Below are positions 19,150 to 37,197 of a stretch of DNA of 64,000 nt, piece after piece. Where the stretch lies: contig DYEO01000002.1 in assembly GCA_020725665.1 (NCBI GenBank), positions 6,451 through 70,450 of the forward strand, given 5' to 3'. The first letter of the stretch is position 1, and each line of letters opens with the position of its first letter. Origin of the DNA: Dethiobacter sp. GTDB lineage: Bacteria > Bacillota > Dethiobacteria > DTU022 > UBA8154. Below the pieces are notes generated by a model, which had not been told where the DNA came from, did not search any database, and was given only the letters and a program-made list of their open reading frames with translations. The translations under genes and the position numbers were made by a program.

Positions 19150-19760
19150 AGGGGGGTCAGTCCCCTTTTGGGATACTTTGGGTTTCAAGCTTCTGCTTCA
19201 ACGTACTTACGGTAGAGTTGGCTATCCTTTTGAAAATACCCGAGAATCTTATCCGTTGAGACCATTGGATTATTTTTTTTACCTGCATAAACAGGATAAC
19301 TGCTCCAGGGGTAATCCAGAGGATTATCAACTATTTCTGCCCTGACAGGGTTCAAATGGATATATTTGCTGGTTAGCAGATTATGGGCGTCTGTTAGAAT
19401 AAGTTCGGAATGATAGCGACCTTGAAAAAGGTGGCCCACTAAATTATACCTTTTATTAAAATACATAGTATATTGCATATTTATGAGTTTCATGATTTTA
19501 GCGATCTCTTCATCTAATGTCTCCACCTGGAGATGCAGATGGTTGGTCATCAGGCAATAAGCATACAGGAGAAAAGGATATTTTTCACAGCACTCTTTCA
19601 AAATTGATAAGTAAACGCGCCTGTCTTTATCGTCTTTGAAGATGTCCTGCCGGCGATTACCCCGGCAGATAATGTGATAGATGGCGCCGGGAAACCAGAT
19701 ACGGGGTTTTCTGGGCATGCTCACCTACTCCTTTACTGGGGTCAGACCCCTTTTGGGAAA
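19150..19760 (-). mobile_element. IS200/IS605-like or REP-associated tyrosine-transposase (RAYT) unit bounded by 21-bp hairpin repeats
   Basis: ggggtcagtccccttttggga at 19153-19173 and ggggtcagaccccttttggga at 19738-19758, in direct orientation around a Y1-transposase gene. Confidence 0.6.
19185..19724 (-). CDS. Y1 (HUH) transposase, IS200-like / RAYT
   Basis: HUH motif HLHLQVE; catalytic Tyr region (HLFQGRYHSELI); N-terminal PRKPRIWFPGAIYHIICRGN. Confidence 0.7.
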   Translation of the reverse strand: MSMPRKPRIWFPGAIYHIICRGNRRQDIFKDDKDRRVYLSILKECCEKYPFLLYAYCLMTNHLHLQVETLDEEIAKIMKLINMQYTMYFNKRYNLVGHLFQGRYHSELILTDAHNLLTSKYIHLNPVRAEIVDNPLDYPWSSYPVYAGKKNNPMVSTDKILGYFQKDSQLYRKYVEAEA

Positions 19761-22049: not shown

Positions 22050-22090
22050 TAAAAAGTAACTGCTCAGGCTAAAAACGCCTGAGCAGTTAT
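22050..22090 (-). terminator. Rho-independent terminator at the 3' end of the BMC operon
   Basis: 13-bp perfect stem gtaactgctcaggc / gcctgagcagttac with a T-run on the minus strand. Confidence 0.55.
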
Positions 22091-22134: not shown

Positions 22135-23937
22135 TCAAACTTTAACATTTGACGGACTGCGCCGGATCACCATACCCTTCTTTTGCGCCGTTGCCAGGAG
22201 TTCTCCCCCCTGCATGACAATCTCGCCGCTTTTCACCGTAAATACGGGCCAGCCGGTCAGTTCCTTCCCCTCGTAGAGGGAGAAGTCGGAGCGGGAGGCC
22301 AGTTGCAGCGGGTCAACCTTACGGCGCTCCTGCAGATCCACCACGACAATATCGGCATTACTCCCCGGCAAGAGGGAACCTTTGGCAGGATAGAAGCCAA
22401 ATATTTCCGCCGGACGTAGGGATGTAACCTCTGCCAGCCGGGTAAGGTCAATGCGCCCCCTGTTTACACCTTCACTTAACAGGGAGGGTAGATGGGTAGC
22501 CAGGGCCGGATAACCGGGCAGGGCTTCCGCCATACCTTTATCCACCATTTTTTCCGCAAGCGTAAGCGTGGCGTTATCCGTCCCCACTGTATCTATGATT
22601 CCTTCACGCAGGCCCTGCCAGAGAGCTTCGCGATCTTGCGGGGACCTGAAGGGTGGGGTCATCTTGCCCCGCGCACCGAGCAGCCAGTCCGTATCGATGG
22701 TCAGGTACGGCGAGGTAGTCTCCGCATAGAGGGAATAAGCGCCGCCACCTCTTTCGCGGTATCTGCGTATTACTTCTATGCTCTCCCGGGCGGACAGGTG
22801 TACCAGATAAATGGTAACCCCGCAACTCCGGGCCAGCAGCACAGCCCTTTTTACCGCCTCTTCCTCCGCCAGGCTGGGCCGTGTCAGGGACCAGGCCTGC
22901 AGGTCGTTATCCTGCTCCACCTGCCGGCGGTGTTGGGCGGTTGAACGCTCCACGATGTGGGAATTTTCAGCGTGGATGGCAATACTCACATCCCGGCAGC
23001 CTTTAACCTTTTCAAAAACATCCAGGATTTTATCATCATGCATGTGGGGGATTAGCCCCGGGATGCCGCACATAAATATTTTAAAAGAAGTTATTTGCAA
23101 ATGTTTGATGTAGGCGGGAATTTCCTCCACCTGCCGCGGTGTGGTGATGATCAGATGGGGGAATATGTCGATATAGCTGTGCCGTTCCACCATCTCCACA
23201 AAAGAAGGCAGGTAGTCAAAATATGATTCTTCACTGTAGAGCATACAACCGGCCGCCGTAACGCCGCCCAGCAGGGCTGAGGCTGTTTCCTTCTCCATCT
23301 CCTCCCGCATATCGCCGAATATTCCCAGATGGATATGCGGATCCACAACGCCGGGCAGCACATACAGGCCCGTTGCATCGATCATCTTCTTTCCCCGGGC
23401 CTGGCCGCTAACACTGATGGCGGCGATTTTACGACCGCTGACCTCCAGGTCTCCCCGGAACACACCGAGGCGGGGAATCACCAGGTAACCATTTTTGATT
23501 ACCAGATCCGCTTCCCCCGGAAGCACCCCACCGGCGCCCTTTAAGTAGGCGATCTCTTTTTTTATCTGCTCCAGCTCACCCTGGAACGATGCAAGGGAAG
23601 CAGCACTAGCCGGGATCGGGGGTTTCGCTCCCGTTTCCCCGGGCAAAGGGGAAGGCAGCAGCGATAGAGGAGACAGTGGCGGGGGCGGCAAAGCAGCCCC
23701 GGTAAAAGCGTCTCCGGCAACAGGCAGGCTTTCCTGCGCCGTCCCCCCGGCCCCGCTCCCTCCCTTAACTGACACACTGCCACTCCTGACAGGGTTTTTA
23801 ATAATACGTATCTCCAGCTGCGCCGCCCGCTCCAGCGCCACGTCCGTAACAACATCGTCAGCGCCGATCATGAATTCCTTGTTCCCCAGGCGGGCAGCCA
23901 TCTCCAGATCCAGGGCGGTAATAATTCTTTTGGGCAA
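22135..23937 (-). CDS. Cyclic amidohydrolase (dihydropyrimidinase / hydantoinase / allantoinase family) with an N-terminal targeting module and a Pro/Ser/Ala-rich linker
   Basis: VDPHIHL, KIFMCG, IHAEN, YLVHLS metal-dependent amidohydrolase motifs. TTG start (MPKRIITALDLEM) 16 nt after the BMC-T stop, with a GGGGGGAG RBS. The N-terminal 40 aa are homologous to the N-terminus of the class-V PLP enzyme at 24911-26263. Confidence 0.75.
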   Translation of the reverse strand: MPKRIITALDLEMAARLGNKEFMIGADDVVTDVALERAAQLEIRIIKNPVRSGSVSVKGGSGAGGTAQESLPVAGDAFTGAALPPPPLSPLSLLPSPLPGETGAKPPIPASAASLASFQGELEQIKKEIAYLKGAGGVLPGEADLVIKNGYLVIPRLGVFRGDLEVSGRKIAAISVSGQARGKKMIDATGLYVLPGVVDPHIHLGIFGDMREEMEKETASALLGGVTAAGCMLYSEESYFDYLPSFVEMVERHSYIDIFPHLIITTPRQVEEIPAYIKHLQITSFKIFMCGIPGLIPHMHDDKILDVFEKVKGCRDVSIAIHAENSHIVERSTAQHRRQVEQDNDLQAWSLTRPSLAEEEAVKRAVLLARSCGVTIYLVHLSARESIEVIRRYRERGGGAYSLYAETTSPYLTIDTDWLLGARGKMTPPFRSPQDREALWQGLREGIIDTVGTDNATLTLAEKMVDKGMAEALPGYPALATHLPSLLSEGVNRGRIDLTRLAEVTSLRPAEIFGFYPAKGSLLPGSNADIVVVDLQERRKVDPLQLASRSDFSLYEGKELTGWPVFTVKSGEIVMQGGELLATAQKKGMVIRRSPSNVKV

Positions 23938-23953
23938 ACTGCTCCCCCCTTCG

Positions 23954-24601
23954 CTATTTGGCCTGCAGGCTTGCGATAGCGTTTTGGGCAGCATCCATCG
24001 CCGTTTTAACCAGGGATTCATCCCCGGAGAGATAGAGGCGGCCGTAGCGTCCCACCGGATCGAAGTGTACTATTCTTATATCCGCATTTTTCTCCGCCTC
24101 ATTGACCGCATGGGTGATATAGACAGCCGGTTCCACCTCCATGATCAGGAGGGACTCGGAGGGGACAATCATGGAACCCTGGCGGAAACGGTTGATCAAC
24201 TGGGCCTGGTAGGGACTGATGTTGTTAATAATCTTGGTTGATACAATTTGCGGCATTATTTTATCAGTTTGATGCAGGTTGTAGCGGCTCAGGATAGCGT
24301 GGCCCGCTTCCAGGACACCGTCCACGGACTCGGAATGAAGCTCGATCATCCCGAATTCCCGCTCCACATCCTGGAAGCCGGAGCGGGCCTCCCCGCTTTT
24401 GAGGGCAATATCGAGCATGCCGTATACTTCGGAGCCGGGCGCGATCTCCAGCCAGAGCTGGGCCATACCCGCCATGGGGACATCTCCCCGGGAGACGGTC
24501 CCCAGGAACGCGGCATACTGGGGCTGCATACGGTCAATAAACACGTACGTTCTCAGAACAATATTTTCACCCACCTGAATTCCTCCTTCAGCAGCGGGCA
24601 A
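23954..24601 (-). CDS. BMC-T shell protein (tandem BMC-domain protein, EutL/PduB-like)
   Basis: 215 aa; DIALKSGE and DAAQNAIASL segments typical of permuted tandem BMC domains; lies inside the shell-gene cluster. Confidence 0.65.
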   Translation of the reverse strand: MPAAEGGIQVGENIVLRTYVFIDRMQPQYAAFLGTVSRGDVPMAGMAQLWLEIAPGSEVYGMLDIALKSGEARSGFQDVEREFGMIELHSESVDGVLEAGHAILSRYNLHQTDKIMPQIVSTKIINNISPYQAQLINRFRQGSMIVPSESLLIMEVEPAVYITHAVNEAEKNADIRIVHFDPVGRYGRLYLSGDESLVKTAMDAAQNAIASLQAK

Positions 24602-24896
24602 AATCTATTTCATCGATAATCGCCACAATGGCAGCATCCACGGGAAGCGCCTTCTCCTGCGGCAATGTTGTGCCCACAGGTTCGCCGCTGCTTAAAACAA
24701 GCTGGGCGGGACTTCCCGTGGTTACACAAACAAGGCTGCCCAGCCCCGAACCGAAAATATCCACCGCCACGAAGGGTTCACCCCGTACCTTCTTTTTCTC
24801 CGGGGAGTACTCCTGCACGATGGCCAGCTTGTAGCCGGAAAGTCTCCTGTCCTTGATCGTGGAGACCACTGCACCGGTTACTTTGGCTATGATCAT
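24588..24896 (-). CDS. BMC-P vertex protein (EutN/PduN/CcmL family)
   Basis: MIIAKVTGAVVSTIKDRRLSGYKLAIV...VAVDIFGSG, the EutN/CcmL fold signature. Confidence 0.8.
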   Translation of the reverse strand: MIIAKVTGAVVSTIKDRRLSGYKLAIVQEYSPEKKKVRGEPFVAVDIFGSGLGSLVCVTTGSPAQLVLSSGEPVGTTLPQEKALPVDAAIVAIIDEIDFARC

Positions 24897-24910
24897 TTAT
24901 AAACCCCCCA

Positions 24911-26263
24911 TCATTTTCGCAAAAGCCCGGCCAGGCAATCCATGACATGTTTGAGATTTTCCTTTGTGGTATAAAAGTGGGGTGCAATACGAATGGCATT
25001 GCCCCGGGCCGAGGCGATGATGTTATGTTTTTTCAGGTCAATCTCCACCTGGTGCGAGTCATCCACCCTGATCGCCGTGGTGGAACCTTTCTTTTTAACA
25101 TCCAGGGGACTGAGCAGCTCCAGGCCCCGCTCCTGCGCCAGCCCGATCGTATACTCAGAAAGCATGTTGATCCGTTTTTCAATGTTTTTTGGCCCGACCT
25201 CGTTGATTATTTCCATGCCGGCACGGGCGGCAAAGGCGGTAAGGACCGGCGGCGTCCCCGTGTCAAAGCGGCGGCTGTCGGAAGCATAATCGAGGTAACG
25301 CACCTGGAAGGAGAAGGGATTCTCCTGGCCGAACCAGCCGGTTACGGCCGGTTTGAGACAGGAAATAAGATCTTTTTTTACATAGATAAAGGCAATTCCC
25401 GGAATCCCCAGAAGATATTTCAGATTACCGGAGGATAGTATATCAATATCCATCTGCTTGACGTCGAGATCAACCGTACCGAGCGACTGGTAAGCGTCAA
25501 CGTAAAAGAGAGAGCCCTTTTCGTGAATGATCCGGGCAATGGCTCCCAGGTCCTGTTTAAAACCGTTCTGATAATAGACATGCGTCACGGAAGTGAGCAC
25601 AGTCTCCTCGTCCAAAAGACGGCGGTAGTCCTCCAGCAAAATCTCACCGTTGCGCACGGGGACGTAATCCACCTTGTAACCATATTTCTGACTGGCCAGC
25701 CAGACGTGGCCCACCGTGGGGAATTCCGCCTCTGTGGTCAGGATACGCCGTCTGGCCCCCAGCGGATCCAGGGCACTGGCAATGGATGCAGTAGCCTCCG
25801 ACACGGAGGTGGAGAGGGCGATCTCGTCGGGGCTGGCGTTAATCAACCGGGCAAATTCATGCTTGGCCTTAATTGTTTCCTCGATCCAGTACTCCCAGTC
25901 CATACCGGCTGTCAGCCAGCTATCAAGGTAATCTTCAATAGCCCGGCGCACTCTTTTGGCCTGGGGGGCCTGAGAGCAGTTGGCCACGTGAATGGTATGG
26001 GCCAGCAGGGGGAACTCTCCCTGCCAGCGGCGGGCAAAATCCTCGGAAAGCACATCCGCCCCTGTATTTGCGGGAGAACTTTGCTGTGTCGCAGCCGGAG
26101 TCCGATCCTGCGGCGATACTGCTGCCCTGACCAGGCTGATACCCAGGCGCCGCGCATTTTCTTCCGCTATCGCCGTTACAATGTCGTTTTCCCCGTATTC
26201 CATAACCGTTTTGCCTGCTTCTTTGCATAGCTCTATATCCCAAGCGGTAATGATCTTCTTCAT
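24911..26263 (-). CDS. Class-V PLP-dependent enzyme (aminotransferase/C-S-lyase family) with an N-terminal BMC-targeting-like module
   Basis: PLP-lysine region SSGNLKYLLGIPGIAF. N-terminal MKKIITAWDIELCKEAGK...VTAIAEENARRLGISL followed by an S/P/A/T/Q linker. RBS AAAGGGGGGAG. Confidence 0.7.
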   Translation of the reverse strand: MKKIITAWDIELCKEAGKTVMEYGENDIVTAIAEENARRLGISLVRAAVSPQDRTPAATQQSSPANTGADVLSEDFARRWQGEFPLLAHTIHVANCSQAPQAKRVRRAIEDYLDSWLTAGMDWEYWIEETIKAKHEFARLINASPDEIALSTSVSEATASIASALDPLGARRRILTTEAEFPTVGHVWLASQKYGYKVDYVPVRNGEILLEDYRRLLDEETVLTSVTHVYYQNGFKQDLGAIARIIHEKGSLFYVDAYQSLGTVDLDVKQMDIDILSSGNLKYLLGIPGIAFIYVKKDLISCLKPAVTGWFGQENPFSFQVRYLDYASDSRRFDTGTPPVLTAFAARAGMEIINEVGPKNIEKRINMLSEYTIGLAQERGLELLSPLDVKKKGSTTAIRVDDSHQVEIDLKKHNIIASARGNAIRIAPHFYTTKENLKHVMDCLAGLLRK

Positions 26264-26347
26264 TTAAGCGATCTCCCCCCTTTCATGCCGCAAAACACCC
26301 GTCACTCATGCCATTTGGCAGCAAACATCGCAGCAACGCGGTGCGGT

Positions 26348-26635
26348 TTATTCTCCCTTACTATTAAGGTTTTTAAGAATAAATGCCTCTATTTCGGCAT
26401 GGGGCCGGGGAATAACATGCACGGACAATACTTCTCCCACACGCTTGGCAGCAGAGGCTCCTGCATCGACAGCAGCCTTCACCGCCCCCACATCTCCTTC
26501 CACGATGACTGTGATATATCCTGCACCAATGTTCTCCTTCGCCAGCAACTGCACATTGGCCGCCTTAACCATGGCATCAGCCGCTTCGATAGCCGCAACC
26601 AGGCCCTTCGTTTCGATCAAACCAAGAGACTTCAT
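26348..26635 (-). CDS. BMC-H hexameric shell protein (PduA/EutM family)
   Basis: [28 protein letters not shown], the canonical BMC domain. Confidence 0.9.
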
Positions 26636-26699
26636 TGTTTAAAACCCTCCTCATGCAGAGCTATTTAATTAAATTGTATTGAACATATCGAAAAGTTTC

Positions 26700-26715
26700 T
26701 GTTAAAAAGACTACA
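26700..26715. promoter_or_regulatory. Crp/Fnr-type palindromic site TGT-N10-ACA (site A) at about -41.5 of the BMC operon promoter
   Basis: TTCTGTTAAAAAGACTACAAAA. rc TACAAT -10 hexamer (approx. 26673-26678) lies 21 nt from the site edge; coordinates +/-2 nt. Confidence 0.45.
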
Positions 26716-26799
26716 AAAGAGGAAATTCAGCAGCAAATCCCGAATAATTATTTTAAAGCGTTAATTTAATCAGATTTGGGGAGAGGAGGTTACCTGAAG

Positions 26800-27513
26800 A
26801 TGAACGCCGGCAGCAAACATGGGGGCAATTTTAGCGGATCTGCTTACCATTATTCACCCTGGTTTCGCCGAGGTGTAGCCTGCTGGGAACCTGTTTTCGA
26901 AAAATGCCCGCAAAAAAGTGTGCGTAAAAACAGCATTATTTTCAGCCAGGAAGAGGTAAACGAATCCGTCTACTTCATCCACAAGGGGCGGGTAAGGTTA
27001 TCATCGTTTGATAAAAACGGGAATGAGAAGTCCATCGTCATCGTCTCCGAGGGAAACATCATCGGTGAGGTGTCCGCCAAGGAAAGGATCCCGGCCATCG
27101 TAACGGCTACTGCCGTTACCGATTGTACACTTTTCTACATGCCCAGCGATCTCTTTTCCCAGAAGGTCTTAGCCAGCCCCGTTTTAAGTGAACGGCTTAT
27201 CCTGGAACTGATGTACCTGGTCCGTATTCTAACAGGTCATATACGGGATATATCCTTCATGGACGCAAGTGAGCGGGTGGTTACCTACCTGTTCAAGCTC
27301 TCCAACAATTACGGCTTGGATACACCCCAAGGACGCAAGATCACTATCCGTTTTACCCACCAGGAAATGGCCGATCTTACGGGCACCTGCCGCGTCACCG
27401 TCTCCAAAATCATGAAATCCCTCGATAAATCAAAAGTCATCAAAAAAATCGACGGCCACCTCTATATCCTCGACGAAGCTTACTTTCAAAAAATTATGGA
27501 AGAGGTCTCCTGA
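26800..27513 (+). CDS. Crp/Fnr-family transcriptional regulator
   Basis: cNMP-binding beta-roll (FIHKGRVRLSS...GEVS) plus a C-terminal HTH (QEMADLTGTCRVTVSKIMKSL). Start moved to MNAGSKHG with a GAGGAGG RBS. Confidence 0.8.
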   Translation: MNAGSKHGGNFSGSAYHYSPWFRRGVACWEPVFEKCPQKSVRKNSIIFSQEEVNESVYFIHKGRVRLSSFDKNGNEKSIVIVSEGNIIGEVSAKERIPAIVTATAVTDCTLFYMPSDLFSQKVLASPVLSERLILELMYLVRILTGHIRDISFMDASERVVTYLFKLSNNYGLDTPQGRKITIRFTHQEMADLTGTCRVTVSKIMKSLDKSKVIKKIDGHLYILDEAYFQKIMEEVS

Positions 27514-27514
27514 C

Positions 27515-28240
27515 TCATTTGCCAAAGCCAACATAGGGCGGGGCATGTACGGCGTGTTCCAGCATCAGGGCGGCACCCGTAATGTCAAAAACAGGGAGTT
27601 GGTACTTTTCCTGTAGAGCATGGCTGTAGGTTGCCAGGTTGCTGCACTCCAGGAGGAGGGCCTGCACCCCCTTGTTTTTCTGCAACAGCTTCCCGGCAGC
27701 GGCCAGTACATCCCGGCACATCAGGTCCACATCGAGAGCCGTACCGCCCTCGATAACGATCTCCCGGAAATGGGGTTCCAGCTCCATGCCCTGGATTTCC
27801 AGGTGGGTTTCCGAGCCGATCCCCGCAGCGCGCAGGTGCTGCTCCTGCAGGAGACCGGCATGCCCGGTAATGATGCCGATGGCTCCTTTTCGTCCCACAA
27901 GGTTCCAGAGCAGGGGCACGAGCACCAGGGCTGAGGTGAGTATGGGCAGGGATCCGCCCGATGCCAGTTCCTGCTGGTAAAGAGCCATGAGACCGCAGTC
28001 GCCGATAACCGCCCATATACCTTTTGCCTTCAGCTTCTTTACCGCGCCCAGCAGTTCATTTTTTATCCCTTCCGACCCTTCGATCAGGTCAGAAAATGAC
28101 CCTTCCACCACTTCGTAGCAAACAGGGAAGGGAAACGTCTTGGCGTGACCCGGATCCCCGGGGACGCGAGGCGACTTACCTTGAAAAACCAGGACGCCCA
28201 CACGCTGGCCGTAAAATGGAAAACCCTTTGCAACTTTCAT
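27515..28240 (-). CDS. Asp/Glu/hydantoin-racemase superfamily protein
   Basis: About 240 aa; Cys-containing half-site motifs (VIGDCGL, LLECSNL) typical of the PF01177 family. Confidence 0.55.
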   Translation of the reverse strand: MKVAKGFPFYGQRVGVLVFQGKSPRVPGDPGHAKTFPFPVCYEVVEGSFSDLIEGSEGIKNELLGAVKKLKAKGIWAVIGDCGLMALYQQELASGGSLPILTSALVLVPLLWNLVGRKGAIGIITGHAGLLQEQHLRAAGIGSETHLEIQGMELEPHFREIVIEGGTALDVDLMCRDVLAAAGKLLQKNKGVQALLLECSNLATYSHALQEKYQLPVFDITGAALMLEHAVHAPPYVGFGK

Positions 28241-28329: not shown

Positions 28330-29544
28330 TCATCTTCCCCTGAGCAATAATAATTTATTTTTATTTAAAAGATCAGCGGTGATCTCCAGTAGCCTGTCAA
28401 TGTCCTCCCTGCTGTTGTAGCAGTGGGGCGAAACCCTGATACCGCCCACACCGGAAGTATAGCGCAGGGAAACAAAGACTCCTTCCTGCGTCAGGCGGGC
28501 ATTTAATTTTCTCTCCTCTTCCAGGCCTCCCGGCAGGGTAAAAGAAGTAATCCCTGAACGATGCCGGGGCTCCCGGGGGCTGACTAGCCTGATTCCCAGT
28601 TCCTCCAGGCCGGTAGCCAGCACATCGCCCAGTTCCCTAACCTTCTTTTCCACGGCTTTTATGCCCGTTTCTTCCAGTTTTTTCAGGCTGTGACAGAGGG
28701 TCAGGGCGCCAAGGTAATTTCCCGTCCCCCCCGTTTCAAACTTCCGGGCCGTCTCTGCCAGCTCCAGTCGGTCAAAGGGCGTGCGCAGGGGTGATTCCAG
28801 ATATTCTCCCCATCCTCCCTCCGGCTCAAGGGCGTTGAAATAGCTGTAGAAATCCGGCTTTAGGAGGGGCAGAAGATTTCTGTTAACATAAAGAAAGCCC
28901 ATGCCAAAGGGATTGCGCAGCCACTTGTGCCCCCCGGCACAGTAAACGTCCACCTCCGTTTCCCCCAAATCCACAGCCAGGGCGCCCGCTTCCTGGATTC
29001 CATCCACAATCAACAGGCAACCGTGCTCCCGGGCCAGCCGGCTGAATTCCTGCAGCTCCACCCGGAAGCCGTTTATCTCCTGCACGGCGCTGATTACGAT
29101 CGCTTTGGTGTTTTCGTCGATGCGGGCGGCAAAATCGGAAACATCCACCCTGCCGTCCTTTGTGGCCACGGCGCGAATCTCGAAGGGAATTTTCTCACGC
29201 CTCGCCTGCCAGCAGAGCGTTGTGGCAAAAAACTCCAGGTCGCAGATGAGGATATTGTCTTCCTTTTCCAGGGGCAGGCTGCCGGCAATGAGGCCGAGTC
29301 CGTGGCTGGTGCTTTCCACCAGGGCAATCTCCTCCGGCGTCACGTTCAACAGACGGGCCGCCTCTGCCCTGGCCCGGGCAAAATAGCTGTAAAGATGTAC
29401 GGTAAAATCCGTGGGAGGGATATGAATATTTTGCAGGGAAGCGATCACTTGTTTCGCTTCTTCCGCAACTTCGGGATCGATTAAACCCATGCAGGCCGTG
29501 TCGAGATAGGTTATTTTGTTGGAGGAAAGATCTATGTTTTTCAC
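28330..29544 (-). CDS. Class-V aminotransferase / cysteine-desulfurase-like PLP enzyme (no targeting module)
   Basis: PLP-lysine motif YCAGGHKWLRNPFGMGFLYV; fold-type I class V. Confidence 0.7.
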   Translation of the reverse strand: MKNIDLSSNKITYLDTACMGLIDPEVAEEAKQVIASLQNIHIPPTDFTVHLYSYFARARAEAARLLNVTPEEIALVESTSHGLGLIAGSLPLEKEDNILICDLEFFATTLCWQARREKIPFEIRAVATKDGRVDVSDFAARIDENTKAIVISAVQEINGFRVELQEFSRLAREHGCLLIVDGIQEAGALAVDLGETEVDVYCAGGHKWLRNPFGMGFLYVNRNLLPLLKPDFYSYFNALEPEGGWGEYLESPLRTPFDRLELAETARKFETGGTGNYLGALTLCHSLKKLEETGIKAVEKKVRELGDVLATGLEELGIRLVSPREPRHRSGITSFTLPGGLEEERKLNARLTQEGVFVSLRYTSGVGGIRVSPHCYNSREDIDRLLEITADLLNKNKLLLLRGR

Positions 29545-29658: not shown

Positions 29659-30042
29659 CTATAAACTTAACGGCTTTTGCGGCTGCGCGATGGCTTTTTC
29701 TTCAACCTCATAAGCCTGATCATCCATATATTCCCGGCCCCAGCCCGTATAATTATGGCATAAAACATAACCAAGAGCAGCGCCCAGGAACCAGGCCATG
29801 AGCATAATGGCCACCATTTCGGAAGCCATACCCTTAATCATGGCATCGGCGCACTGCCTTACATTCTTAGCCAGGATCAAAGCCACCACTATGCCGGCAA
29901 GCGTCGGCACCCAGAAAGCCATGGGTAACGGCGCCCCGGCAAAGGCCAACCACACAATACCGATAAACAACACTAAAAAGGGCAAAATCAGGCCAAACAT
30001 ACCAACATGAAACTCAAGCCTTTCTTTCGACATTTCACCCAC
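29659..30042 (-). pseudogene. Probable N-terminal fragment of an NhaC-family Na+/H+ antiporter
   Basis: First about 90 aa resemble the NhaC N-terminus (GAPLPMAF...AMIKGMAS...MVAIMLMAWFLG); the ORF is only 127 aa where about 470 is expected. Confidence 0.35.
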
Positions 30043-30127: not shown

Positions 30128-31642
30128 TTAATTGTTCAGGCTCTCTTTTATCATTTGCCGTGCTTCGTCAGAGTCCATAAAGCCGTGGAACTTGGCGATA
30201 ACCTCCGGCGGTTGCGGCGGGGTCAGATAGGAGACCACCGTGAAGACAATGATGTTAAAGATTAGCCCTACAAATCCCGGGTGCATGCCCCAGGGGTTCA
30301 TCTTGTTGATAAACAGGAAATAAATGGCGATCAACGTGCCCACTATTAAACCGGATATGGCCCCAGCCTTTGTGGCACGCGGCCAGAAGAGGCAGCCCAC
30401 AATGGAGGGGAAAAACTGGCTCAACCCCGCCGTCGATACGGCAACGAGCATGGAGAGGAGCTGGGGCGGCTCCAGAACCGCCCAGGCGGAAAAAATAAAG
30501 ATGCAGATAACCGCAGCCCGGCTAATGCCCAGTACCGTTCTGTCTTTGGCCTTTTTATTTATTGTTTTTTCATATACGTCCCGGCCTATCAGTTGTGCTG
30601 TGGTTAAAAGCTGGCTGTCGGCAGTAGAAAGGGTAGCGCATAAGCCCCCCGCGGCAATGAGGGCCGCCAGCCAGACAGGCAGATATTCAAACGTAAAACG
30701 GGGCAGGATCTGGTCGGCGAATTCAATACCTGGCATGGCTGCCCGTGCACCCATGCCCAACCAGATATAAGACACGTAAATCCACACCAGGTAGAGGGGC
30801 GCCAGAATGGCCACCCACTTGAGCACGCGCAGGGAACCGGCGGCAAACATGCGGATGATCATGTGTGGTGCCGTAATGGACAAGCCGATGGTAATAATCA
30901 CAACCCAGGAAAAAGCCATGGGTAGCTTGAAATAACCGGGAGCTCCCGGCAGGACAAGCTGTCCCGGCGTTTCCCGGTAAATCATCTGCCAGATCTCTCC
31001 CGGGCTGCCCCAAAGGGCCGTGGAAATAAGCGCCCCGCCGACGACGATGGCCAAAAACATGAAGATCCCCATGAAGATATCCGTCCATACTACTGAGCGT
31101 ATGCCGCCGAAAAAGACGTAGATAACCACAAATACGCCCAACCCTATGGCACCCCAGGCATAGGAGATGGCACCAAACGTGGCAAATTCGGCGATCCAGC
31201 CGGCACCGGCCAACTGCATCTGTATATAGGGAATAATGAAGAGTGCGCCTAGAATGCCGATGAGAGCCCTCAGGAAATCGCTCTGGTAAAAATCACCAAG
31301 CATGTCGCCGGGCGTTACATAATCATACTTTTTACCCAGCAGCCAGATGCGGTAACCGAAGATAAAGAGGCAAAGCCCACCGATAATCTGGGTAAAAGGA
31401 CCGAGAGCCCAGTAGGCCATCCCGTGTTTATAAAAGAAACCACCTGTTCCCAGAAAAGCGGAGGCACTGTGATAGGTAGCCGTATAGGTGAAAAAGAGGG
31501 CTACAAATCCAAGCGTTCTTGAAGCGACAAAGAAGTCTACTGTAGAATCGGAAATACGGCGAAAATAGGCAATCATACCGATGCCGAAAGCCAATACCAT
31601 GACCAAAAGGACGATAAATACGGATAAGGAAACATCCGACAT
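30128..31642 (-). CDS. Sodium:solute symporter (SSS family, PutP/PanF-like)
   Basis: 13 predicted TM helices; SSS signature regions. Confidence 0.8.
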   Translation of the reverse strand: MSDVSLSVFIVLLVMVLAFGIGMIAYFRRISDSTVDFFVASRTLGFVALFFTYTATYHSASAFLGTGGFFYKHGMAYWALGPFTQIIGGLCLFIFGYRIWLLGKKYDYVTPGDMLGDFYQSDFLRALIGILGALFIIPYIQMQLAGAGWIAEFATFGAISYAWGAIGLGVFVVIYVFFGGIRSVVWTDIFMGIFMFLAIVVGGALISTALWGSPGEIWQMIYRETPGQLVLPGAPGYFKLPMAFSWVVIITIGLSITAPHMIIRMFAAGSLRVLKWVAILAPLYLVWIYVSYIWLGMGARAAMPGIEFADQILPRFTFEYLPVWLAALIAAGGLCATLSTADSQLLTTAQLIGRDVYEKTINKKAKDRTVLGISRAAVICIFIFSAWAVLEPPQLLSMLVAVSTAGLSQFFPSIVGCLFWPRATKAGAISGLIVGTLIAIYFLFINKMNPWGMHPGFVGLIFNIIVFTVVSYLTPPQPPEVIAKFHGFMDSDEARQMIKESLNN

Positions 31643-31663: not shown

Positions 31664-31945
31664 TTATTTCCAGAGATATTTGGCCGCGACCATGCCGCAG
31701 GCGAGAATTACATGGGACCACAGCGTCAGCCAGAAATAGATGAAAGGAACGCCAAAAACAAACGGCTCAGCCCTGTTTGCCCAGATCAGCCCCGGGTAAA
31801 CCATGAGAAAAGCCACAATACCAACTATGGTCAGCACCCAACCTAACTGTGTGCGGGGCCACAAATAGGTATGGGCTTTAATCAGGCGGTACGATTCCTC
31901 GTAAGATGCGGCCGTTGCTTTGCTTACTTCAACTTCTGGTTTCAT
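31664..31945 (-). CDS. Small membrane subunit associated with SSS transporters (DUF4212-like)
   Basis: 93 aa, 2 TM helices, placed immediately upstream of the SSS gene. Confidence 0.45.
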   Translation of the reverse strand: MKPEVEVSKATAASYEESYRLIKAHTYLWPRTQLGWVLTIVGIVAFLMVYPGLIWANRAEPFVFGVPFIYFWLTLWSHVILACGMVAAKYLWK

Positions 31946-32246: not shown

Positions 32247-33524
32247 ATGATGAGTACTTGTGTTTCATGTTGCCCCGGATTAGAAAATTATTTCTGGAAA
32301 AACCCGGGACAGGTCCTGTTTTATCTCGATGCGCCGCTCAAGGCTTATCTGCTGAACCTGGATAGAGGCATCGAGATTTTACAGGGGTGTTACTCTAAAG
32401 ATTTCGGCAGGCCGGCTGTTTTTGACCCGGTGGATATGCTCCGATCTTTAATTCTTATGGTGTCACTTAAAATTACCTGTGTTACCAAATGGGCTGATGA
32501 TCTCACCAAAAGTGATGTGCTGGCTATTTTATGTGGTTTCGAGCCGGGCAAGACTCCTTCCGCCTCCGCTTTTTACGATTTCTGGAACAGGTTGTGGCTG
32601 GAAGACAAAAGGCTGAGAAAAAAACGTAAACTAAGGATTAGGATAAAGAGTAAGCAACCGAAAAATGTGCAGAAAGGGCAGAAATTGCCCAACAGGCGCC
32701 CGGGGGGGATAGACTCGTCAGGTCTTTCCGTAAGGGAAGATTTTTCTCCACCAAACGTCCCGAGCGGCTGCTGCAGGAGCTGTTCACCAGGGTCTTTGTT
32801 CAAGGCTCCAGGGATAGAAATATTATCCCTGTTTCTATGATACTAACCGGTGACGTATTTCTGGGGCAGAAATCTGTATACGTTTTCCTGTGTTAATGGT
32901 GAAGATGAACTGCCGGTATTTCTTCGTTTTGGACAAGGCTCCAGGCATGATAGTGTGGTTTTTGCGTTCAGTGTGGTGGAAGCGTGGTCCCTTTTTTCTA
33001 AGGCCGGGCTTAATGTCAGCGTTTTCATCGGTGATTCGGCGCACGATGCTAACCCCTTATATGCACTGCTGGATGATTACGGCTCCAAGCCGGTTATTGC
33101 GCTGAATAAAAAGCCTTCATCTCTTATCCCTTTAAATGAGCAGGGTATTCCTCTTTGTCCTAAAGGGTTTTTAATGCAGTACTGGGGATTCGGTGAGAAA
33201 AAAAGCCGGTTCAAATGGCGCTGCCCTAAAATCGTCGGTAAAAAAAGGAACAGGAACAAAATTGATTGTACAACGCCCTGCACAAACTCCAGCTACGGCT
33301 TTACTTGTTATACCAACCCGGAGTGGGACCGGCGTATCTTTACGGATATCCCCAGGGGGTCGGCTGTCTGGAAACAGCTATACAGTGCATCTGGATGCCT
33401 GGATTGCACAGGAACTGGAGCTTTCAAAGCTCGACAAAAAGGCACTGCTGCTGCGCGTTCTGTGAGTTGGCACGGCCGCTGCCTGTGCGTAGGCGCAGCG
33501 GCTCTTGATTTTGGACACTTGTAG
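32247..33524 (+). mobile_element. Frameshifted IS5/IS1182-family transposase remnant (DUF772 N-terminal domain plus DDE domain)
   Basis: ORF1 GRPAVFDPVDMLRSLILM matches the DUF772 N-terminus; ORF2 (32850-33524, a different frame) carries the DDE region (GDSAHDANPLYALL...). Confidence 0.6.
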
Positions 33525-34116: not shown

Positions 34117-35556
34117 CTATTTGCTTTGACTACCCGTTAAAGTGCTTGCCGCATCCTTTTCTTTTACTGCTAAACTAATAACAACAAGAAGGATTAAACC
34201 AATAACGGCGCCGGCGGCAGCACCGGCAATACCCCAGGGTTTGTTAAGATCCCAGATTATTGCCGTGATACAGCCAGCGACCGTTCCCGCGATTGCCCCC
34301 TCTTTTTTTGCACCCTTCCAAAACACCCCCGCGTACAAAGGTGCTGCGATAGCCCCTCCAATTACAGCTGCTTGGAATACCCAGAGGTCCAACATCATTT
34401 TTGGTGGCCGTAAAGCGAGCAGCATACCTAATACACCGATAGTTCCAGTTGCGATACGGCTTATTACAAAAAGCTGTTGCTCCGATACGTCCTTTTTAAT
34501 CTTTGCATAGAAATCCTTGCTAAATATTGTACCCGCTGCAATAAGCGCCGAGTCTGCTGTGGATAAAATTGCCGCGCCAACCGCGCTTAACACAAACCCG
34601 CCAAGGACAGGCGGAAGGTAATTGTTCATGAGCAGGGGAAAGGCATGATCAGCAGATTGTAAGTTAGGCTCTAGAACACGGGCAGCCGAGCCGGCCAAAA
34701 CAATAAAAGTGTAAAATACTACCATGAACGCCCCGGACACACCAATCATACCTTTTGCTGTTAAAGTATCTTTACAAATGAAAAGTCTCATCAAATAATA
34801 CGGGAGCGTGGAGGAGGCCACTACGGCAAATATTACCATACTACCAATGGTAAGCCATGTAAGACTACCTCCCTGATTGAAGCTAACCAGGTCACCGGCG
34901 GATACGTTATTAATACCGCCCGTAACCAAAGCCAGCCTGGCATTAAGGTTGGAAACACTGCCAAACTGCGTTACAATAATATAAATCGTGCCAATGCTAA
35001 CTCCTAACCACAAAATGATAAACTGAATGCCATCGGTCCAGACAACTGATGTCATACCACCAAATGTAGTGTATAAAAGTAAAATGGCTCCTATTAATAG
35101 AACAACCGTAGAATATTCCCATCCAACCAGTTGTTGAAGCACCAATCCGATACCGCGCAACTGCAGTATAACAAAAATACAAAGAATCGCCAGGTAAATG
35201 GCCGCGCTCCACATGGATAAAAACGGGCTCTTAAAACGCTGCTCCAGGTATTCGGAAACTGTTACAGGCCCTAATCGCCTTAGCTCACCCGCAATGAAAT
35301 AAAGGACTAACCAGGCAATTGCTATGGGTATTAATAAAAATGCAAAAAACCCATAGCCCCGTAGATAACTGGTCCCCGTAAAACCTACAATAGTAACCGA
35401 GCTGATGTAAGTGGCGCCAAAACTGCCAGCCGCCAGCCATACACCTAATTTCCGTCCGGCAAGATAATAATCTTCAAGATCTTTAGTTTTAACATACCCA
35501 TAAAACCCCACAGCAAGAACAATAAGCAACATAATTCCAAAAATTAAAATTTGCAA
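34117..35556 (-). CDS. Sodium:solute symporter (SSS family)
   Basis: 13 TM helices; TTG start with a GGAGGGAAG RBS. Confidence 0.8.
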   Translation of the reverse strand: MQILIFGIMLLIVLAVGFYGYVKTKDLEDYYLAGRKLGVWLAAGSFGATYISSVTIVGFTGTSYLRGYGFFAFLLIPIAIAWLVLYFIAGELRRLGPVTVSEYLEQRFKSPFLSMWSAAIYLAILCIFVILQLRGIGLVLQQLVGWEYSTVVLLIGAILLLYTTFGGMTSVVWTDGIQFIILWLGVSIGTIYIIVTQFGSVSNLNARLALVTGGINNVSAGDLVSFNQGGSLTWLTIGSMVIFAVVASSTLPYYLMRLFICKDTLTAKGMIGVSGAFMVVFYTFIVLAGSAARVLEPNLQSADHAFPLLMNNYLPPVLGGFVLSAVGAAILSTADSALIAAGTIFSKDFYAKIKKDVSEQQLFVISRIATGTIGVLGMLLALRPPKMMLDLWVFQAAVIGGAIAAPLYAGVFWKGAKKEGAIAGTVAGCITAIIWDLNKPWGIAGAAAGAVIGLILLVVISLAVKEKDAASTLTGSQSK

Positions 35557-35592
35557 TTTTTCTTCCCTCCGGAATTTAATTAAGTTTAATTT

Positions 35593-35700
35593 TTATTGTT
35601 TCCTAAGACCATCAATATAAAAACCAAGCATGCAAATACTTATTCCGTAAAAAACGATAATACCAAACCATGTACCCCAGGGCAAATTAGCCGGTCCCAT
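35593..35700 (-). CDS. Unannotated 35-aa single-TM protein (MGPANLPWGTWFGIIVFYGISICMLGFYIDGLRKQ) upstream of the SSS gene
   Basis: ATG preceded by AAAGGAGGTG at ideal spacing; not in the ORF track because it is shorter than 60 aa. Confidence 0.4.
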   Translation of the reverse strand: MGPANLPWGTWFGIIVFYGISICMLGFYIDGLRKQ

Positions 35701-35737
35701 AATTTTCACCTCCTTTCGCGAACTTTTGCCGATTGGA

Positions 35738-36493
35738 TCATGCATCAACATTTGTATCCAGTGCAAAAAGTTTACCAGGCCCTTTTGCTTTTTTTACTCC
35801 TGACAATTTTAACATATGCCAAAGAAGACACTGATTACTGGATATTACCGGTTTATTTAAATCAGTTTCAATTAAATTAATTGCCTTCATGGCAGGGAAC
35901 CCGGTACAACTGAGAAATATTGCCTGGCTATCCCGGCAATCAGCCCTTAATGCCAGTTCATAAATATCTTTTTCATTTACATAGGCTATTTCTTCGCCTC
36001 CTTTTAAACCCAACCATGCGTCACCACTTACCGTATAGCCTTCCTTTATAAAATAATTGACTCCTTTTTTATGGATAATTTCTTCATAAGGGCTGCAGAA
36101 CGAAATATTTATAACGCCAAGCACTTTCAATGCGTTTAAAACAGCCGTGGTGGCAGTTGTCACTGGAACTCCATTTAGTTTTGCGCTTATCTCGTTGCAC
36201 AAAACCTTATCATAGTTTTCTTTATAAAAACTTCCGGAAGTGCATCCATAACCTATTACAGAAACTTTGGATAATATCAGTTTTTCTGCCTCAATAATTA
36301 CCTGTTCGGACATTTCCTCTAACAGTTCCAGAGACAAAACATCCCCGGGAGTTCTGGCTCGGGAAAAATGAACTGACACTCCGTCAGGCAAATAATTAAT
36401 GAGATCGCACTCAATAATCGGATTTGGTGACGGTACTATTACACCTAACCTTGCTCGCCAACCAGGACCAACCAAGTTTTCAGGCACGCTCAA
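35738..36493 (-). CDS. Asp/Glu/hydantoin-racemase superfamily protein (maleate-isomerase / arylmalonate-decarboxylase-like)
   Basis: Two Cys-containing half-site motifs (GYGCTSGSF, FLSCTGFP) at the spacing typical of the family. Confidence 0.55.
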   Translation of the reverse strand: MSVPENLVGPGWRARLGVIVPSPNPIIECDLINYLPDGVSVHFSRARTPGDVLSLELLEEMSEQVIIEAEKLILSKVSVIGYGCTSGSFYKENYDKVLCNEISAKLNGVPVTTATTAVLNALKVLGVINISFCSPYEEIIHKKGVNYFIKEGYTVSGDAWLGLKGGEEIAYVNEKDIYELALRADCRDSQAIFLSCTGFPAMKAINLIETDLNKPVISSNQCLLWHMLKLSGVKKAKGPGKLFALDTNVDA

Positions 36494-36648
36494 TTCTCTC
36501 CTTCTCTATATACTTAGCTGTTTTCCACCAATTCTTATTTCCTTATTGCAGAAGACTAACATAATACATTTGTTCCATCTGTTGTTCAGGCTACATTTAT
36601 GAGAATAATAAATATATTATTAATAAACCCTCGTCCTTGCAAGAGATA

Positions 36649-37197
36649 TTAATTACCAGCAAAAGCAGAACCATCCGCACCGGTCAACTGCAGCGACTCC
36701 CGCAGTTGCTCCGGCGTAACCTTGGGAAAATGTACGGCCAGGTACCAGGGAAAGGTCTGGTGCAGCCAGAGTTGGTAACGGTTGGTGAGGGTAAACATGG
36801 CGTCCAGGAGACTACAATATTCTTCCCTGGCTTTCACCTCATCCAGAGAGGCAACGAACTTATTCAGCAACTCCCCGTAGCGTTTCAGGCCGAAATAGCC
36901 GATCACACCACGGCCCACGCCGGTCATCTGACGGGTCATCATTTTAAGCATCTCGAGCGTAAACTCCTGCCGTACGGCGAACACACGCAGATCTGCCAGG
37001 GAATGCACTCCCAGGTTGCGTACTTCGCTGCCTAACATCACCCAGACCGTAAAATACTGGTTATCCACCCCCGCCCCAGTATCCAGTAGACCAAGGCGAA
37101 ATCGCTGCAAATCAGGAGGTTCAGTAAGCCAGATCGCCTCCAACTCTGCGTTGATCTCCTGCAAGAGTGAAAGGACCATGGGATTCAGATCAGCCAT
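36649..37197 (-). CDS. Hypothetical protein, translationally coupled to the upstream ORF (ATGA overlap)
   Basis: 182-aa ORF in an operon; no recognisable motif. Confidence 0.45.
   Translation of the reverse strand: MADLNPMVLSLLQEINAELEAIWLTEPPDLQRFRLGLLDTGAGVDNQYFTVWVMLGSEVRNLGVHSLADLRVFAVRQEFTLEMLKMMTRQMTGVGRGVIGYFGLKRYGELLNKFVASLDEVKAREEYCSLLDAMFTLTNRYQLWLHQTFPWYLAVHFPKVTPEQLRESLQLTGADGSAFAGN

Follow-up and report, generated by a model that had tools for sequence, protein, structure and literature searches.

A 64,000-nucleotide stretch of Dethiobacter sp. DNA (contig DYEO01000002.1, positions 6,451 to 70,450; hereafter the window) carries a bacterial microcompartment (BMC) locus that is very probably a reduced variant of the catalogued type BUF3, with a single BMC-H shell gene and with two enzymes as its predicted cargo: a class-V-fold pyridoxal phosphate (PLP) enzyme and a hydantoinase/dihydropyrimidinase-family cyclic amidohydrolase. 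A sequence-only reading of the window had described the locus as a microcompartment of unassigned chemistry. That description agrees with the literature, in which our search found no paper assigning a function to BUF3, and comparison with the BMC locus catalogue places the locus in a catalogued yet uncharacterised type rather than in one with known chemistry. The novelty that the reading implied was overstated, since the type had already been catalogued as BUF3 (Sutter et al. 2021). What is new here is an EutQ-like domain shared by both enzymes, the single-BMC-H subtype, and a two-module logic for the pathway. Our best explanation as a whole, a reduced BUF3 variant in which the PLP enzyme feeds the amidohydrolase, has in our estimation somewhat less than an even chance of being right.

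The operon runs on the minus strand from 26635 to 22135 and consists of five intact open reading frames (ORFs) separated by intergenic gaps of 13-84 nt (Table 1). Pfam and NCBIfam models identify these, as the sequence-only reading had done, as BMC-H, the class-V PLP enzyme, BMC-P, BMC-T and the amidohydrolase, and a strong terminator hairpin stands 45 nt past the amidohydrolase stop codon. As read from the sequence, the shell set (BMC-H, BMC-P and a tandem-domain BMC-T) is complete and is co-transcribed with the two enzymes. The amidohydrolase most likely starts at a TTG codon at 23937, giving a protein of 600 aa, because this start is the NCBI gene call, follows a GGGGGAG ribosome-binding site and yields an N-terminus (M-PKRIITALDLE) that parallels that of the PLP enzyme (MKKIITAWDIE); on this evidence the gene is unlikely to begin at the ATG at 24021. 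Non-overlapping ORFs of at least 100 aa were scanned with Pfam across the whole 64-kb window, and the window was also searched by tblastn with reference proteins. These searches found no aldehyde dehydrogenase (PF00171), PduL/Pta, alcohol dehydrogenase, glycyl-radical enzyme or B12 enzyme in the window, which bears out the earlier statement that the usual metabolosome core is missing. Likewise, they found in the window no second shell locus, no 2-oxoacid:ferredoxin oxidoreductase (pfam01558, pfam17147, pfam02775), no pfam13380 CoA-binding protein and no acyl-CoA synthetase.

BUF3 was described from 10 loci, mostly in Clostridiales, with Maledivibacter halophilus, Dorea sp. D27 and Clostridia bacterium BRH_c25 among the examples (Sutter, Melnicki, Schulz, Woyke and Kerfeld 2021, Nat Commun 12:3809; PMC8217296, Supplementary Data 2). 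These loci lack an aldehyde dehydrogenase and encode two BMC-H proteins, a cysteine-rich BMC-P with two absolutely conserved cysteines and a type-unique BMC-T, together with a pfam00266 enzyme and a "deamidase" (pfam13382), both of which bear 70-80-aa N-terminal extensions with a Pro-rich linker that occur in microcompartment loci only; pyruvate:ferredoxin-oxidoreductase domains, a thiamine pyrophosphate enzyme and a CoA-binding protein are also listed (PMC8217296). In the M. halophilus locus, a minus-strand Crp gene is followed by BMC-H, Aminotran_5, EutN, BMC-H, BMC-T and Amidohydro_1, and then, in order, by oxidoreductase gamma, delta, alpha and beta genes, ADP-forming acyl-CoA synthetase alpha and beta genes and an NhaC-type carrier. 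These enzymes agree with the published BUF3 list. The window and M. halophilus have one core order in common (Crp, H, PLP, P, (H), T, amidohydrolase), and the orthologues are 57% (BMC-T), 49% (PLP enzyme) and 46% (amidohydrolase) identical, the amidohydrolase being the only one in the M. halophilus locus and equivalent in position. A further homologue of the PLP enzyme, P0176 (55% identical), is APF77_15230, whose neighbour APF77_15235 is a BMC-P labelled BUF3 in the catalogue tree. The window thus shares with the catalogued type the absence of aldehyde dehydrogenase, the divergent Crp-type regulator, the gene order and N-terminal extensions on the same two enzymes. It differs in having one BMC-H where the catalogue has two, in a BMC-P that is not cysteine-rich and has an insertion, and in an amidohydrolase that carries the EutQ-like domain of the PLP enzyme and not the other extension type. 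It also differs in that the oxidoreductase and CoA-binding synthetase genes, adjacent in the catalogued loci, are absent from the neighbourhood of the operon, the redox enzyme associated with this subtype being a tungsten-type aldehyde:ferredoxin oxidoreductase (AOR).

We then surveyed related loci by scanning one genome per species with a BMC-T alignment, which returned 80 loci whose ORFs were typed by BLAST against reference proteins; loci are cited here by their L numbers. About 40 of the 80 carry the PLP-amidohydrolase core, and the rest are other microcompartment types with a related BMC-T. Core loci were found in Lachnospiraceae, Christensenellaceae, Tissierellia, Syntrophomonadaceae, Halobacteroidaceae, Ignavibacteriales, Thermodesulfobacteriota and Bipolaricaulota, from sources that include gut Lachnospiraceae and Christensenellaceae, anaerobic digesters and soda-lake sediments. 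BUF3 is therefore far more widespread than the ten loci of 2021. Maledivibacter halophilus, Lutispora saccharofermentans, Dorea sp. D27 and Dethiothermospora halolimnae are among its cultured hosts. The nearest relatives of the window are metagenome-assembled genomes of Syntrophomonadaceae in the CSSed16 series, with BMC-T proteins 91% and 85% identical. Most BUF3 loci, including L001, L004, L005 and L006, keep the divergent regulator, and a single BMC-H is also found in L004, L005, L006, L011, L013 and L020.

The survey also bears on what BUF3 loci encode beyond the core. In most core loci, four oxidoreductase genes and two synthetase genes directly follow the amidohydrolase gene. In others, a polyferredoxin gene with an AOR gene abuts the operon (L004/L010, on both sides; L013; L014) or an AOR gene lies just upstream of it (L044, L070). 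In three loci without an oxidoreductase (L045, L058, L062), two genes for M24 hydrolases are present together with one for a PanE-type 2-oxoacid reductase, and the reductase points to a 2-oxoacid product. RidA, Ser/Thr-dehydratase-like and GntG/threonine-aldolase-family genes occur in or beside some core operons. Taken as a type, BUF3 does not lack the function of the metabolosome core, because its oxidoreductase and synthetase produce acyl-CoA and ATP, a role that in classical metabolosomes falls to aldehyde dehydrogenase with PduL and a kinase. We attempted to name the 2-oxoacid from the oxidoreductase subunits and abandoned the attempt, since the best models (PadG/PadI, PorA and VorB) all score below their cut-offs and too close to one another to discriminate.

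The shell proteins support the assignment and indicate that the variant is functional. The BMC-H, whose translation contains a PRPH motif, is 91% identical to its L004 homologue and is the sole copy detected by tblastn in the window. The BMC-T scores 228 bits against NCBIfam CcmP, under the curated cut-off of 340, and the precomputed Pfam annotation of the identical NCBI record gives PF27545 CsoS1D_N and a faint PF00936. Its membership of the BUF3 clade was judged from its 57-91% identity to the BMC-T proteins of loci with the BUF3 enzymes; related BMC-T genes of 47-57% identity also occur in loci without those enzymes. The window, L004 and L009 lack the BMC-P cysteines that are conserved in two-BMC-H loci (MYIC, GKC and IGC positions). 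An 11-residue insertion in this protein has its full length only in the window and L009 and is shorter in L004. In comparison with the closest relative, L009, dN/dS is 0.045 for BMC-T and 0.087 for BMC-P, so the shell genes are under strong purifying selection and the variant is functional rather than decaying. These values bear directly on the proposal that the locus is the decaying remnant of a full BUF3 locus, which lost its second BMC-H, oxidoreductase and synthetase through rearrangement linked to insertion sequences and makes no organelle. An IS200-like transposase and a split DDE transposase do lie near the locus, and the oxidoreductase and synthetase genes are indeed absent from the window. 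Against this, none of the five genes is truncated, the catalytic residues are invariant, and the single-BMC-H five-gene core without an adjacent oxidoreductase recurs in L004/L010, in L013 (Ignavibacteriales) and in L020 (Thermodesulfobacteriota). Given the dN/dS values, this recurring architecture and the clean terminator at the operon end, we rejected decay as very improbable.

The evidence that the two enzymes are cargo comes from their N-termini. Residues 1-48 of the PLP enzyme (nt 26120-26263) form an EutQ-N-like domain that is followed by a linker (residues ~49-78) containing Pro, Ala, Ser, Thr and Gln, so that the extension comprises residues 1-78 and the catalytic domain residues 79-450. 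In the amidohydrolase, the corresponding domain occupies residues 2-49 (nt 23791-23934) and is followed by a linker of about 63 residues (50-113) rich in Pro, Gly, Ser and Ala, by residues 114-134 (nt 23536-23598), in which a helix-like heptad pattern was judged by inspection only, and by the catalytic domain (residues ~144-600). The first ~48 residues read MKKIITAWDIELCKEAGKTVMEYGENDIVTAIAEENARRLGISLV in the PLP enzyme and M-PKRIITALDLEMAARLGNKEFMIGADDVVTDVALERAAQLEIRII in the amidohydrolase. Profiles of this N-domain built from the two enzyme families align with an hhalign probability of 99.7% (E 1.4e-26), and tblastn within the window returns a cross-match between the two. A hidden Markov model (HMM) of the domain matches the PLP enzyme (E 6.9e-21) and the amidohydrolase (E 1.8e-18) and no third ORF in the window, and its matches within BUF3 loci are limited to these two enzyme families. 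Among the 120 closest clusters of PLP homologues, 95 carry the N-domain and 25 fall outside the domain pattern; 20 of those 25 are short (383-406 aa), and the four that were examined are not beside shell genes.

In a search of 150 sequences, the same HMM also found E. coli EutQ, over residues 2-47 (E 1.2e-8), and a profile search of 1.84 billion representative proteins gave 1202 matches, EutQ cupin proteins among them; an EutQ cupin domain is present on 4 of the 39 long matches of that search. An AlphaFold2 model of the N-domain is a confident small beta-alpha-beta-beta-alpha-beta unit (pLDDT 91). The domain matches no Pfam family, its sequence gives only spurious matches to solved structures (designed TIM barrels and SH3 domains), and the best Foldseek match in the PDB has an E value of 0.14. 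The N-terminal region of Salmonella EutQ links shell and cargo, with helices H1/H2 (residues 9-41) binding the shell (2025, PMC12487888). Since the N-domain matches the EutQ segment whose Salmonella counterpart binds the shell, we infer that it is a homologue of the EutQ N-terminal module and that it would tether both enzymes, through their low-complexity linkers, to the inner surface of the shell; both would then be cargo. The sequence-only reading had named the cyclic amidohydrolase and the class-V PLP enzyme as the cargo, and the restriction of the domain to these two proteins lends that prediction support.

We also considered that the N-domains might serve a purpose other than targeting, such as oligomerisation or regulation, in which case the enzymes would be cytosolic and the shell would enclose something encoded elsewhere. 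This would accord with the lack of any encapsulation experiment for BUF3, with the lack of a function for the domain from Pfam or solved structures, and with the fact that the amidohydrolase extension differs in the two-BMC-H loci. The confinement of the N-domain to homologues encoded beside shell genes, as far as the four non-matching PLP homologues reveal, argues for targeting instead, as do the match to the shell-binding segment of EutQ and the presence of the domain on small ORFs beside related BMC-T genes of other microcompartment types. Moreover, the alternative extension has an amphipathic helix that resembles an encapsulation peptide by eye and goes with the second BMC-H. A role unrelated to targeting thus appears improbable.

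Variation among the amidohydrolases follows the shell. Of their clusters, 26 have the N-domain, 35 lack any extension and 59 have another one; those of its N-termini that were inspected by eye often show an amphipathic helix of the ILKEISSKLDxL type. Amidohydrolases with the EutQ-like domain come mostly from single-BMC-H loci, whereas two-BMC-H loci carry the other extension, which suggests that the second BMC-H and the peptide-type tag belong together. The peptide-type extension was seen in the two-BMC-H loci L001, L012, L045, L051, L063, L067-L069 and L073.

The EutQ-N-like domain was also observed outside the two enzymes. Among the matches of the profile search, seven proteins of 190-255 aa (P0241, P0245, P0247, P0253, P0255, P0256 and P0259) contain two or three such domains in tandem and end in a C-terminal amphipathic helix (e.g. 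LFEQVKKAVLARL...VIRQVL) that is encapsulation-peptide-like by eye; these proteins could be shell-cargo scaffolds. In addition, the domain lies at or near the N-terminus of ORFs of 95-200 aa that adjoin a related BMC-T gene or lie within ~2.5 kb of it. Such small ORFs occur in non-BUF3 loci among L017-L088 (e.g. L027 6640-6930, L079 12435-13380 and L075 12460-13387), and their hosts, which have other microcompartment types, include Anaerolineae, Bradyrhizobium/Afipia, Burkholderiaceae and Actinomycetota. It is possible that the domain is of general use in microcompartments, as a module that moves together with the related BMC-T clade.

The PLP enzyme has its best PDB matches in kynureninase (1QZ9) and SufS/IscS. 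Residues K282, D256, R420, R425 and C96 are invariant among 120 homologues, K282 is the PLP lysine, and with its class-V site intact the enzyme looks catalytically competent. With kynureninase and SufS/IscS it shares the class-V fold, the PLP lysine, the aspartate and the carboxylate-binding arginines, and it differs from them in an invariant N-C-S-Q motif, in lacking the cysteine loop and in scores below the cut-offs. Its N-terminal half is SufS-like and its C-terminus follows the kynureninase pattern. It falls under every NCBIfam cut-off, with the SufS and NifS families as its strongest matches. A canonical kynureninase was rejected, since the TIGR01814 score is 84 against a cut-off of 246 bits and Leu281, conserved in 119 of 120 homologues, precedes the PLP lysine in place of the Tyr found in the aligned Pseudomonas kynureninase. 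The motif HVANCSQ (residues 92-98; window 25970-25990), whose cysteine is invariant in 120/120 homologues, stands at what we take to be the position of the SufS Ala-Ala-Ser/Thr active-site motif.

The SufS/NifS matches, together with a weak match to the model of an encapsulin desulfurase cargo, raise the question of whether the locus might instead encode a sulfur-mobilising compartment built around a cysteine desulfurase, in the manner of the family 2A encapsulins. The SufS score, 107 bits, is far below the cut-off of 475 bits, the desulfurase alignments stop before the catalytic-cysteine loop of SufS/IscS, which is absent from the kynureninase-like C-terminal part of the PLP enzyme, and such a compartment would have no role for the amidohydrolase or for the ferredoxin-oxidoreductase genes. 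A cysteine desulfurase was ruled out on the missing loop, and the sulfur compartment is by our analysis the least probable of the explanations considered, with hardly any chance of being correct.

The amidohydrolase has its best solved-structure match in the L-hydantoinase 1GKR (E 2.4e-62), with an end-to-end alignment of the catalytic domain. Residues H201, H203, K286, H322, H380 and D454 are invariant in 120 homologues and align with the motif positions of 1GKR. Those positions are the ligands of the binuclear metal centre, the lysine being carboxylated in the family. The enzyme scores 260 bits against the D-hydantoinase model TIGR02033 (cut-off 393) and is also under the cut-offs of hydantoinase, allantoinase, dihydroorotase, ErtD hydantoin-propionate amidohydrolase and all other NCBIfam equivalogs. 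Because the six ligands are kept and all curated families score below cut-off, it is, by these sequence criteria, a competent cyclic amidohydrolase of unassigned specificity. It shares its catalytic-domain alignment and six metal ligands with the hydantoinase/dihydropyrimidinase/allantoinase/dihydroorotase group (1GKR, 4TQT, 3DC8) and differs from that group by an N-terminal region of ~140 residues with a predicted targeting role. Current Pfam assigns both this protein and its M. halophilus orthologue to PF01979/PF07969 and not to PF13382.

Homologues of the two enzymes that lack these N-terminal additions provide clues to the pathway. PLP homologues without the N-domain, 60-65% identical, occur with neither shell nor amidohydrolase genes beside amino-acid-type carriers (L090, L092, L007, L091). 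In L090 and L092, the carriers are of the SNF type; in Evansella clarkii, the order is Crp, PLP, DUF3311, sodium:solute symporter (SSF), a 144-aa protein and a Cucumopine_C protein; in L091, it is AA_permease, PLP, racemase-like, AOR and aldolase-like. Identity between the non-compartment operon and the window is 63% for the PLP enzyme, 37% for the L091 racemase-like protein and 52% for the L091 AOR. The DUF3311 and SSF pair of E. clarkii has its counterpart among the probable uptake genes of the window, and the pair of 144-aa and Cucumopine_C proteins matches two adjacent genes in the window (37197-37643 and 36649-37197) and is also found after the synthetase genes in a Dorea BUF3 locus. Amidohydrolase homologues without an extension, 47-49% identical, are encoded directly beside 2-oxoacid oxidoreductase genes in L008 (Desulfoscipio gibsoniae) and L093 (Desulfosporosinus sp.). 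From these contexts it follows that the PLP enzyme can act alone on an imported amino acid and that the amidohydrolase is the partner of the oxidoreductase. The order of the genes in the operon (PLP, amidohydrolase, oxidoreductase, synthetase) points the same way as these contexts, and for both reasons we favour the PLP enzyme acting before the amidohydrolase, a preference that we hold tentatively and a little less firmly than the explanation as a whole. As a separate observation, the L008/L093 cluster also contains a sigma-54 activator, an oxidoreductase with a Fer4_20/Pyr_redox_2 subunit, a DMSO-reductase-family enzyme and an ATC-hydrolase-like gene, and in L093 additionally a xanthine-dehydrogenase-family hydroxylase; it looks like an undescribed anaerobic N-heterocycle pathway.

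In the pathway that we propose, an amino-acid-like substrate would be imported by a Na+-coupled carrier and racemised where needed by a two-cysteine racemase-like protein. Inside the shell, the PLP enzyme would convert it, by transamination or elimination, to a carbonyl product that is, or closes to, a cyclic amide (lactam or ureide), and the amidohydrolase would open the ring, presumably freeing ammonia and a 2-oxoacid or aldehyde. The shell would serve to confine the intermediate between the two enzymes. The product would then leave the shell for ferredoxin-linked oxidation, which in most BUF3 loci would use the 2-oxoacid:ferredoxin oxidoreductase and the ADP-forming acyl-CoA synthetase, with a yield of ATP, and in the subtype of the window would probably use a polyferredoxin and AOR pair, giving the acid. 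Our confidence in any particular substrate is low. Weak EutA-, EutB- and DoeA-like matches (ectoine/hydroxyectoine enzymes) were considered, and the sequence neither supports nor excludes ectoine/hydroxyectoine, creatinine, thiazoline carboxylates, or glutamine via the 2-oxoglutaramate lactam.

The same organelle could in principle work in the opposite order, with a chiral cyclic amide (a ring of the hydantoin, dihydropyrimidine, thiazoline or lactam type) being imported, racemised and opened by the amidohydrolase, after which the PLP enzyme would deaminate or transaminate the free-amine product to a 2-oxoacid for the ferredoxin oxidoreductase. The amidohydrolase is nearest to L-/D-hydantoinases and dihydropyrimidinases, a gene resembling the Asp/Glu/hydantoin racemase family accompanies the locus, ATC-hydrolase-like ring-opening genes recur nearby, and the RidA genes in some operons fit PLP elimination as a last step. 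A racemase alongside a hydantoinase is a feature of classical hydantoin-utilisation clusters. Opening of a hydantoin or dihydropyrimidine gives an N-carbamoyl product, however, which has no free amine for PLP chemistry, and no carbamoylase of the M20 or CN-hydrolase type is conserved across the ~40 core loci, an M20 dipeptidase-like ORF identified only by eye being present in three of them. On the same grounds, with no conserved carbamoylase in the window or the ~40 loci, we rejected classical hydantoin/dihydropyrimidine utilisation by racemase, hydantoinase and carbamoylase. In addition, the PLP family works without the amidohydrolase beside amino-acid carriers, in L091 the racemase-like gene accompanies the PLP gene, and the oxidoreductase genes adjoin the amidohydrolase gene and not the PLP gene. 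The missing carbamoylase and the company kept by the racemase-like gene lead us to rate the opposite order lower, as unlikely.

Several points weigh against the pathway in which the PLP enzyme acts first and against the cargo assignment on which it builds. The sequence of the PLP enzyme, about as far from SufS as from kynureninase, does not reveal the type of reaction, and the cyclic-amide intermediate was reasoned from the chemistry and not observed. The pairing of a hydantoinase-like enzyme with a racemase-like protein fits the opposite order too. The match to EutQ spans only ~46 residues, and shell binding has been shown only for the Salmonella protein. The AOR gene lies 12 kb away across an insertion-sequence remnant, the window has no oxidoreductase or synthetase gene, and the link between AOR and operon is comparative only. 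Finally, the literature demonstrates no substrate, product or encapsulation for any BUF3 locus.

The AOR belongs to a second run of seven same-strand genes in the window, which from 40712 onward encode a polyferredoxin, the AOR, an ATC-hydrolase-like protein, a 148-aa protein, a Cucumopine_C protein, an Amdase/EutA-like protein and a sodium:solute symporter. The sequence-only reading had noted an AOR 12 kb from the operon without a targeting extension and had set it aside; it did not mention the polyferredoxin gene. The lack of an extension was confirmed, with AFOR_N beginning at residue 10, whereas the dismissal was probably mistaken: the AOR is probably part of the pathway of this microcompartment, because a polyferredoxin and AOR pair or an AOR alone abuts the operon in its closest relatives (L004/L010, L013, L014, L044, L070) and an AOR is present in the non-compartment operon. 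Parts of the second run recur beside BUF3 operons or beside a non-compartment PLP homologue (L004, L013, L018, L007, L091), and on account of these comparative links the run as a whole probably belongs to the microcompartment metabolism. A 186-aa plus-strand ORF at 40239-40799 without a family match was discarded as the shadow of the minus-strand polyferredoxin gene; lists of longest ORFs can mislead in this GC-rich stretch.

Between the operon and the second run lie the Crp/Fnr gene, the racemase-like gene, a second class-V PLP gene, probable uptake genes and the split transposase (Table 1). The N-domain HMM does not match the racemase-like protein or the second class-V PLP enzyme, and this pair of genes recurs in L005, L006, L012, L019, L060 and L073. 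The two transposases suggest local rearrangement. The window also contains sporulation genes (SpoVT, SpoIIE, SpoIID, YabP/YabQ), in keeping with an endospore-forming host. At 56201-62476 on the plus strand, a large N6/N4 DNA methylase gene precedes one that resembles a type III restriction-enzyme res subunit or helicase (ResIII/SNF2/DEAD); together they are probably a restriction-modification system, which is unrelated to the microcompartment.

Table 1. Features of the microcompartment operon and its surroundings, in window positions
Feature	Position	Strand	Basis
BMC-H, first gene of operon	26348-26635	-	PF00936, E 9.9e-30
Class-V-fold PLP enzyme, 450 aa, predicted cargo 1	24911-26263	-	PF00266, E 1.7e-39
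BMC-P pentamer (vertex) protein	24588-24896	-	PF03319, E 5.8e-23
BMC-T, tandem-domain CcmP/CsoS1D-like trimer protein, 206 aa	23954-24574	-	NCBIfam CcmP, precomputed Pfam
Hydantoinase/dihydropyrimidinase-family cyclic amidohydrolase, 600 aa, predicted cargo 2	22135-23937	-	PF01979, E 5.5e-18
Bidirectional intrinsic-terminator-like hairpin, operon end	22056-22090	.	13-14 bp stem, 7 G-C pairs
Divergent intergenic region between BMC-H and Crp/Fnr genes, presumed promoter and operator	26636-26775	.	Sequence
Crp/Fnr-family regulator, divergent from operon	26776-27513	+	PF00027 + PF13545
Two-cysteine Asp/Glu/hydantoin-racemase-like protein	27515-28240	-	NCBIfam PRK07475, 208 bits; GDCG and ECSN motifs
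Second class-V PLP enzyme, no N-domain	28330-29544	-	PF00266
Small protein, 127 aa, function unassigned	29659-30042	-	ORF
Sodium:solute symporter (SSF), probable uptake	30128-31642	-	PF00474; best NCBIfam PanF-like, below cut-off
DUF3311 small subunit, probable uptake	31664-31945	-	PF11755
DUF772/DDE transposase split into two ORFs	32247-33524	+	Between the two gene sets
IS200-like Y1 transposase, downstream of operon	19185-19724	-	Pfam
Second run, seven same-strand genes, ~8 kb upstream of operon	34117-40712	-	Pfam, NCBIfam, tblastn
Polyferredoxin, precedes AOR gene	40209-40712	-	tblastn, ORF listing
Tungsten-type AOR	38197-40104	-	Pfam; AFOR_N from residue 10
148-aa protein, function unassigned	37197-37643	-	ORF
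Cucumopine_C-domain protein	36649-37197	-	Pfam

Of all bacterial microcompartments, those that lack an aldehyde dehydrogenase are the least understood, and the operon described here is approximately the smallest self-contained version of BUF3: it combines three shell genes with two enzyme genes and a single regulator, and it ends in a clean terminator. It would therefore lend itself well to expression, to the purification of shells and to the screening of substrates. The shared EutQ-type domain, possibly a new tag for loading engineered shells, allows the cargo to be predicted. Comparison of gene contexts divides the system into two modules, a PLP module that acts on an imported amino acid and an amidohydrolase module that goes with 2-oxoacid oxidation, which narrows the search for a substrate. 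A bolder possibility, rather unlikely in our view, is that BUF3 represents a third design of organelle, in which a cyclic amide is confined instead of an aldehyde or CO2 and the cargo is loaded by a folded, portable 48-residue EutQ-type domain in place of the classical amphipathic encapsulation peptide. A candidate for the confined intermediate would be a 2-oxo-acid amide or a ureide that closes to a lactam, as 2-oxoglutaramate does, and the output would feed a ferredoxin-linked, ATP-yielding oxidation. Since the domain is present on other proteins beside related BMC-T genes in several microcompartment types, it may be a general cargo-loading tag.

Among known systems, the classical metabolosomes (PDU/EUT/GRM) have the core enzymes and an aldehyde-generating signature enzyme, none of which was found in the window. 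In the ethanolamine-utilisation microcompartment of Salmonella and E. coli, EutQ is a cupin adaptor, whereas the N-domain here is fused directly to the enzymes; the published AlphaFold description of EutQ mentions helices only, in contrast to the beta-alpha-beta-beta-alpha-beta model of the BUF3 domain. BUF1/BUF1B, for which xanthine utilisation has been proposed, is also a Firmicute, aldehyde dehydrogenase-free type with amidohydrolases and is thought to process nitrogen heterocycles. It has a larger gene set (xanthine dehydrogenase, several hydrolases, a decarboxylase and a formiminotransferase), none of which is present here, and shell proteins of other clades; the xanthine locus, and not BUF3, is discussed by Ravcheev (2019).

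Another parallel is the ferredoxin-linked amino-acid fermentation of the Thermococcales, which uses an aminotransferase, 2-ketoacid:ferredoxin oxidoreductases, ADP-forming acyl-CoA synthetases and AOR. The accessory genes of BUF3 are of the same kinds, namely a Por/Vor/Pad-like four-subunit oxidoreductase, an alpha/beta synthetase and polyferredoxin with AOR. BUF3 differs from that fermentation in that its hosts are bacteria and that the upstream part of the pathway would be enclosed in a shell, together with a ring-opening amidohydrolase.

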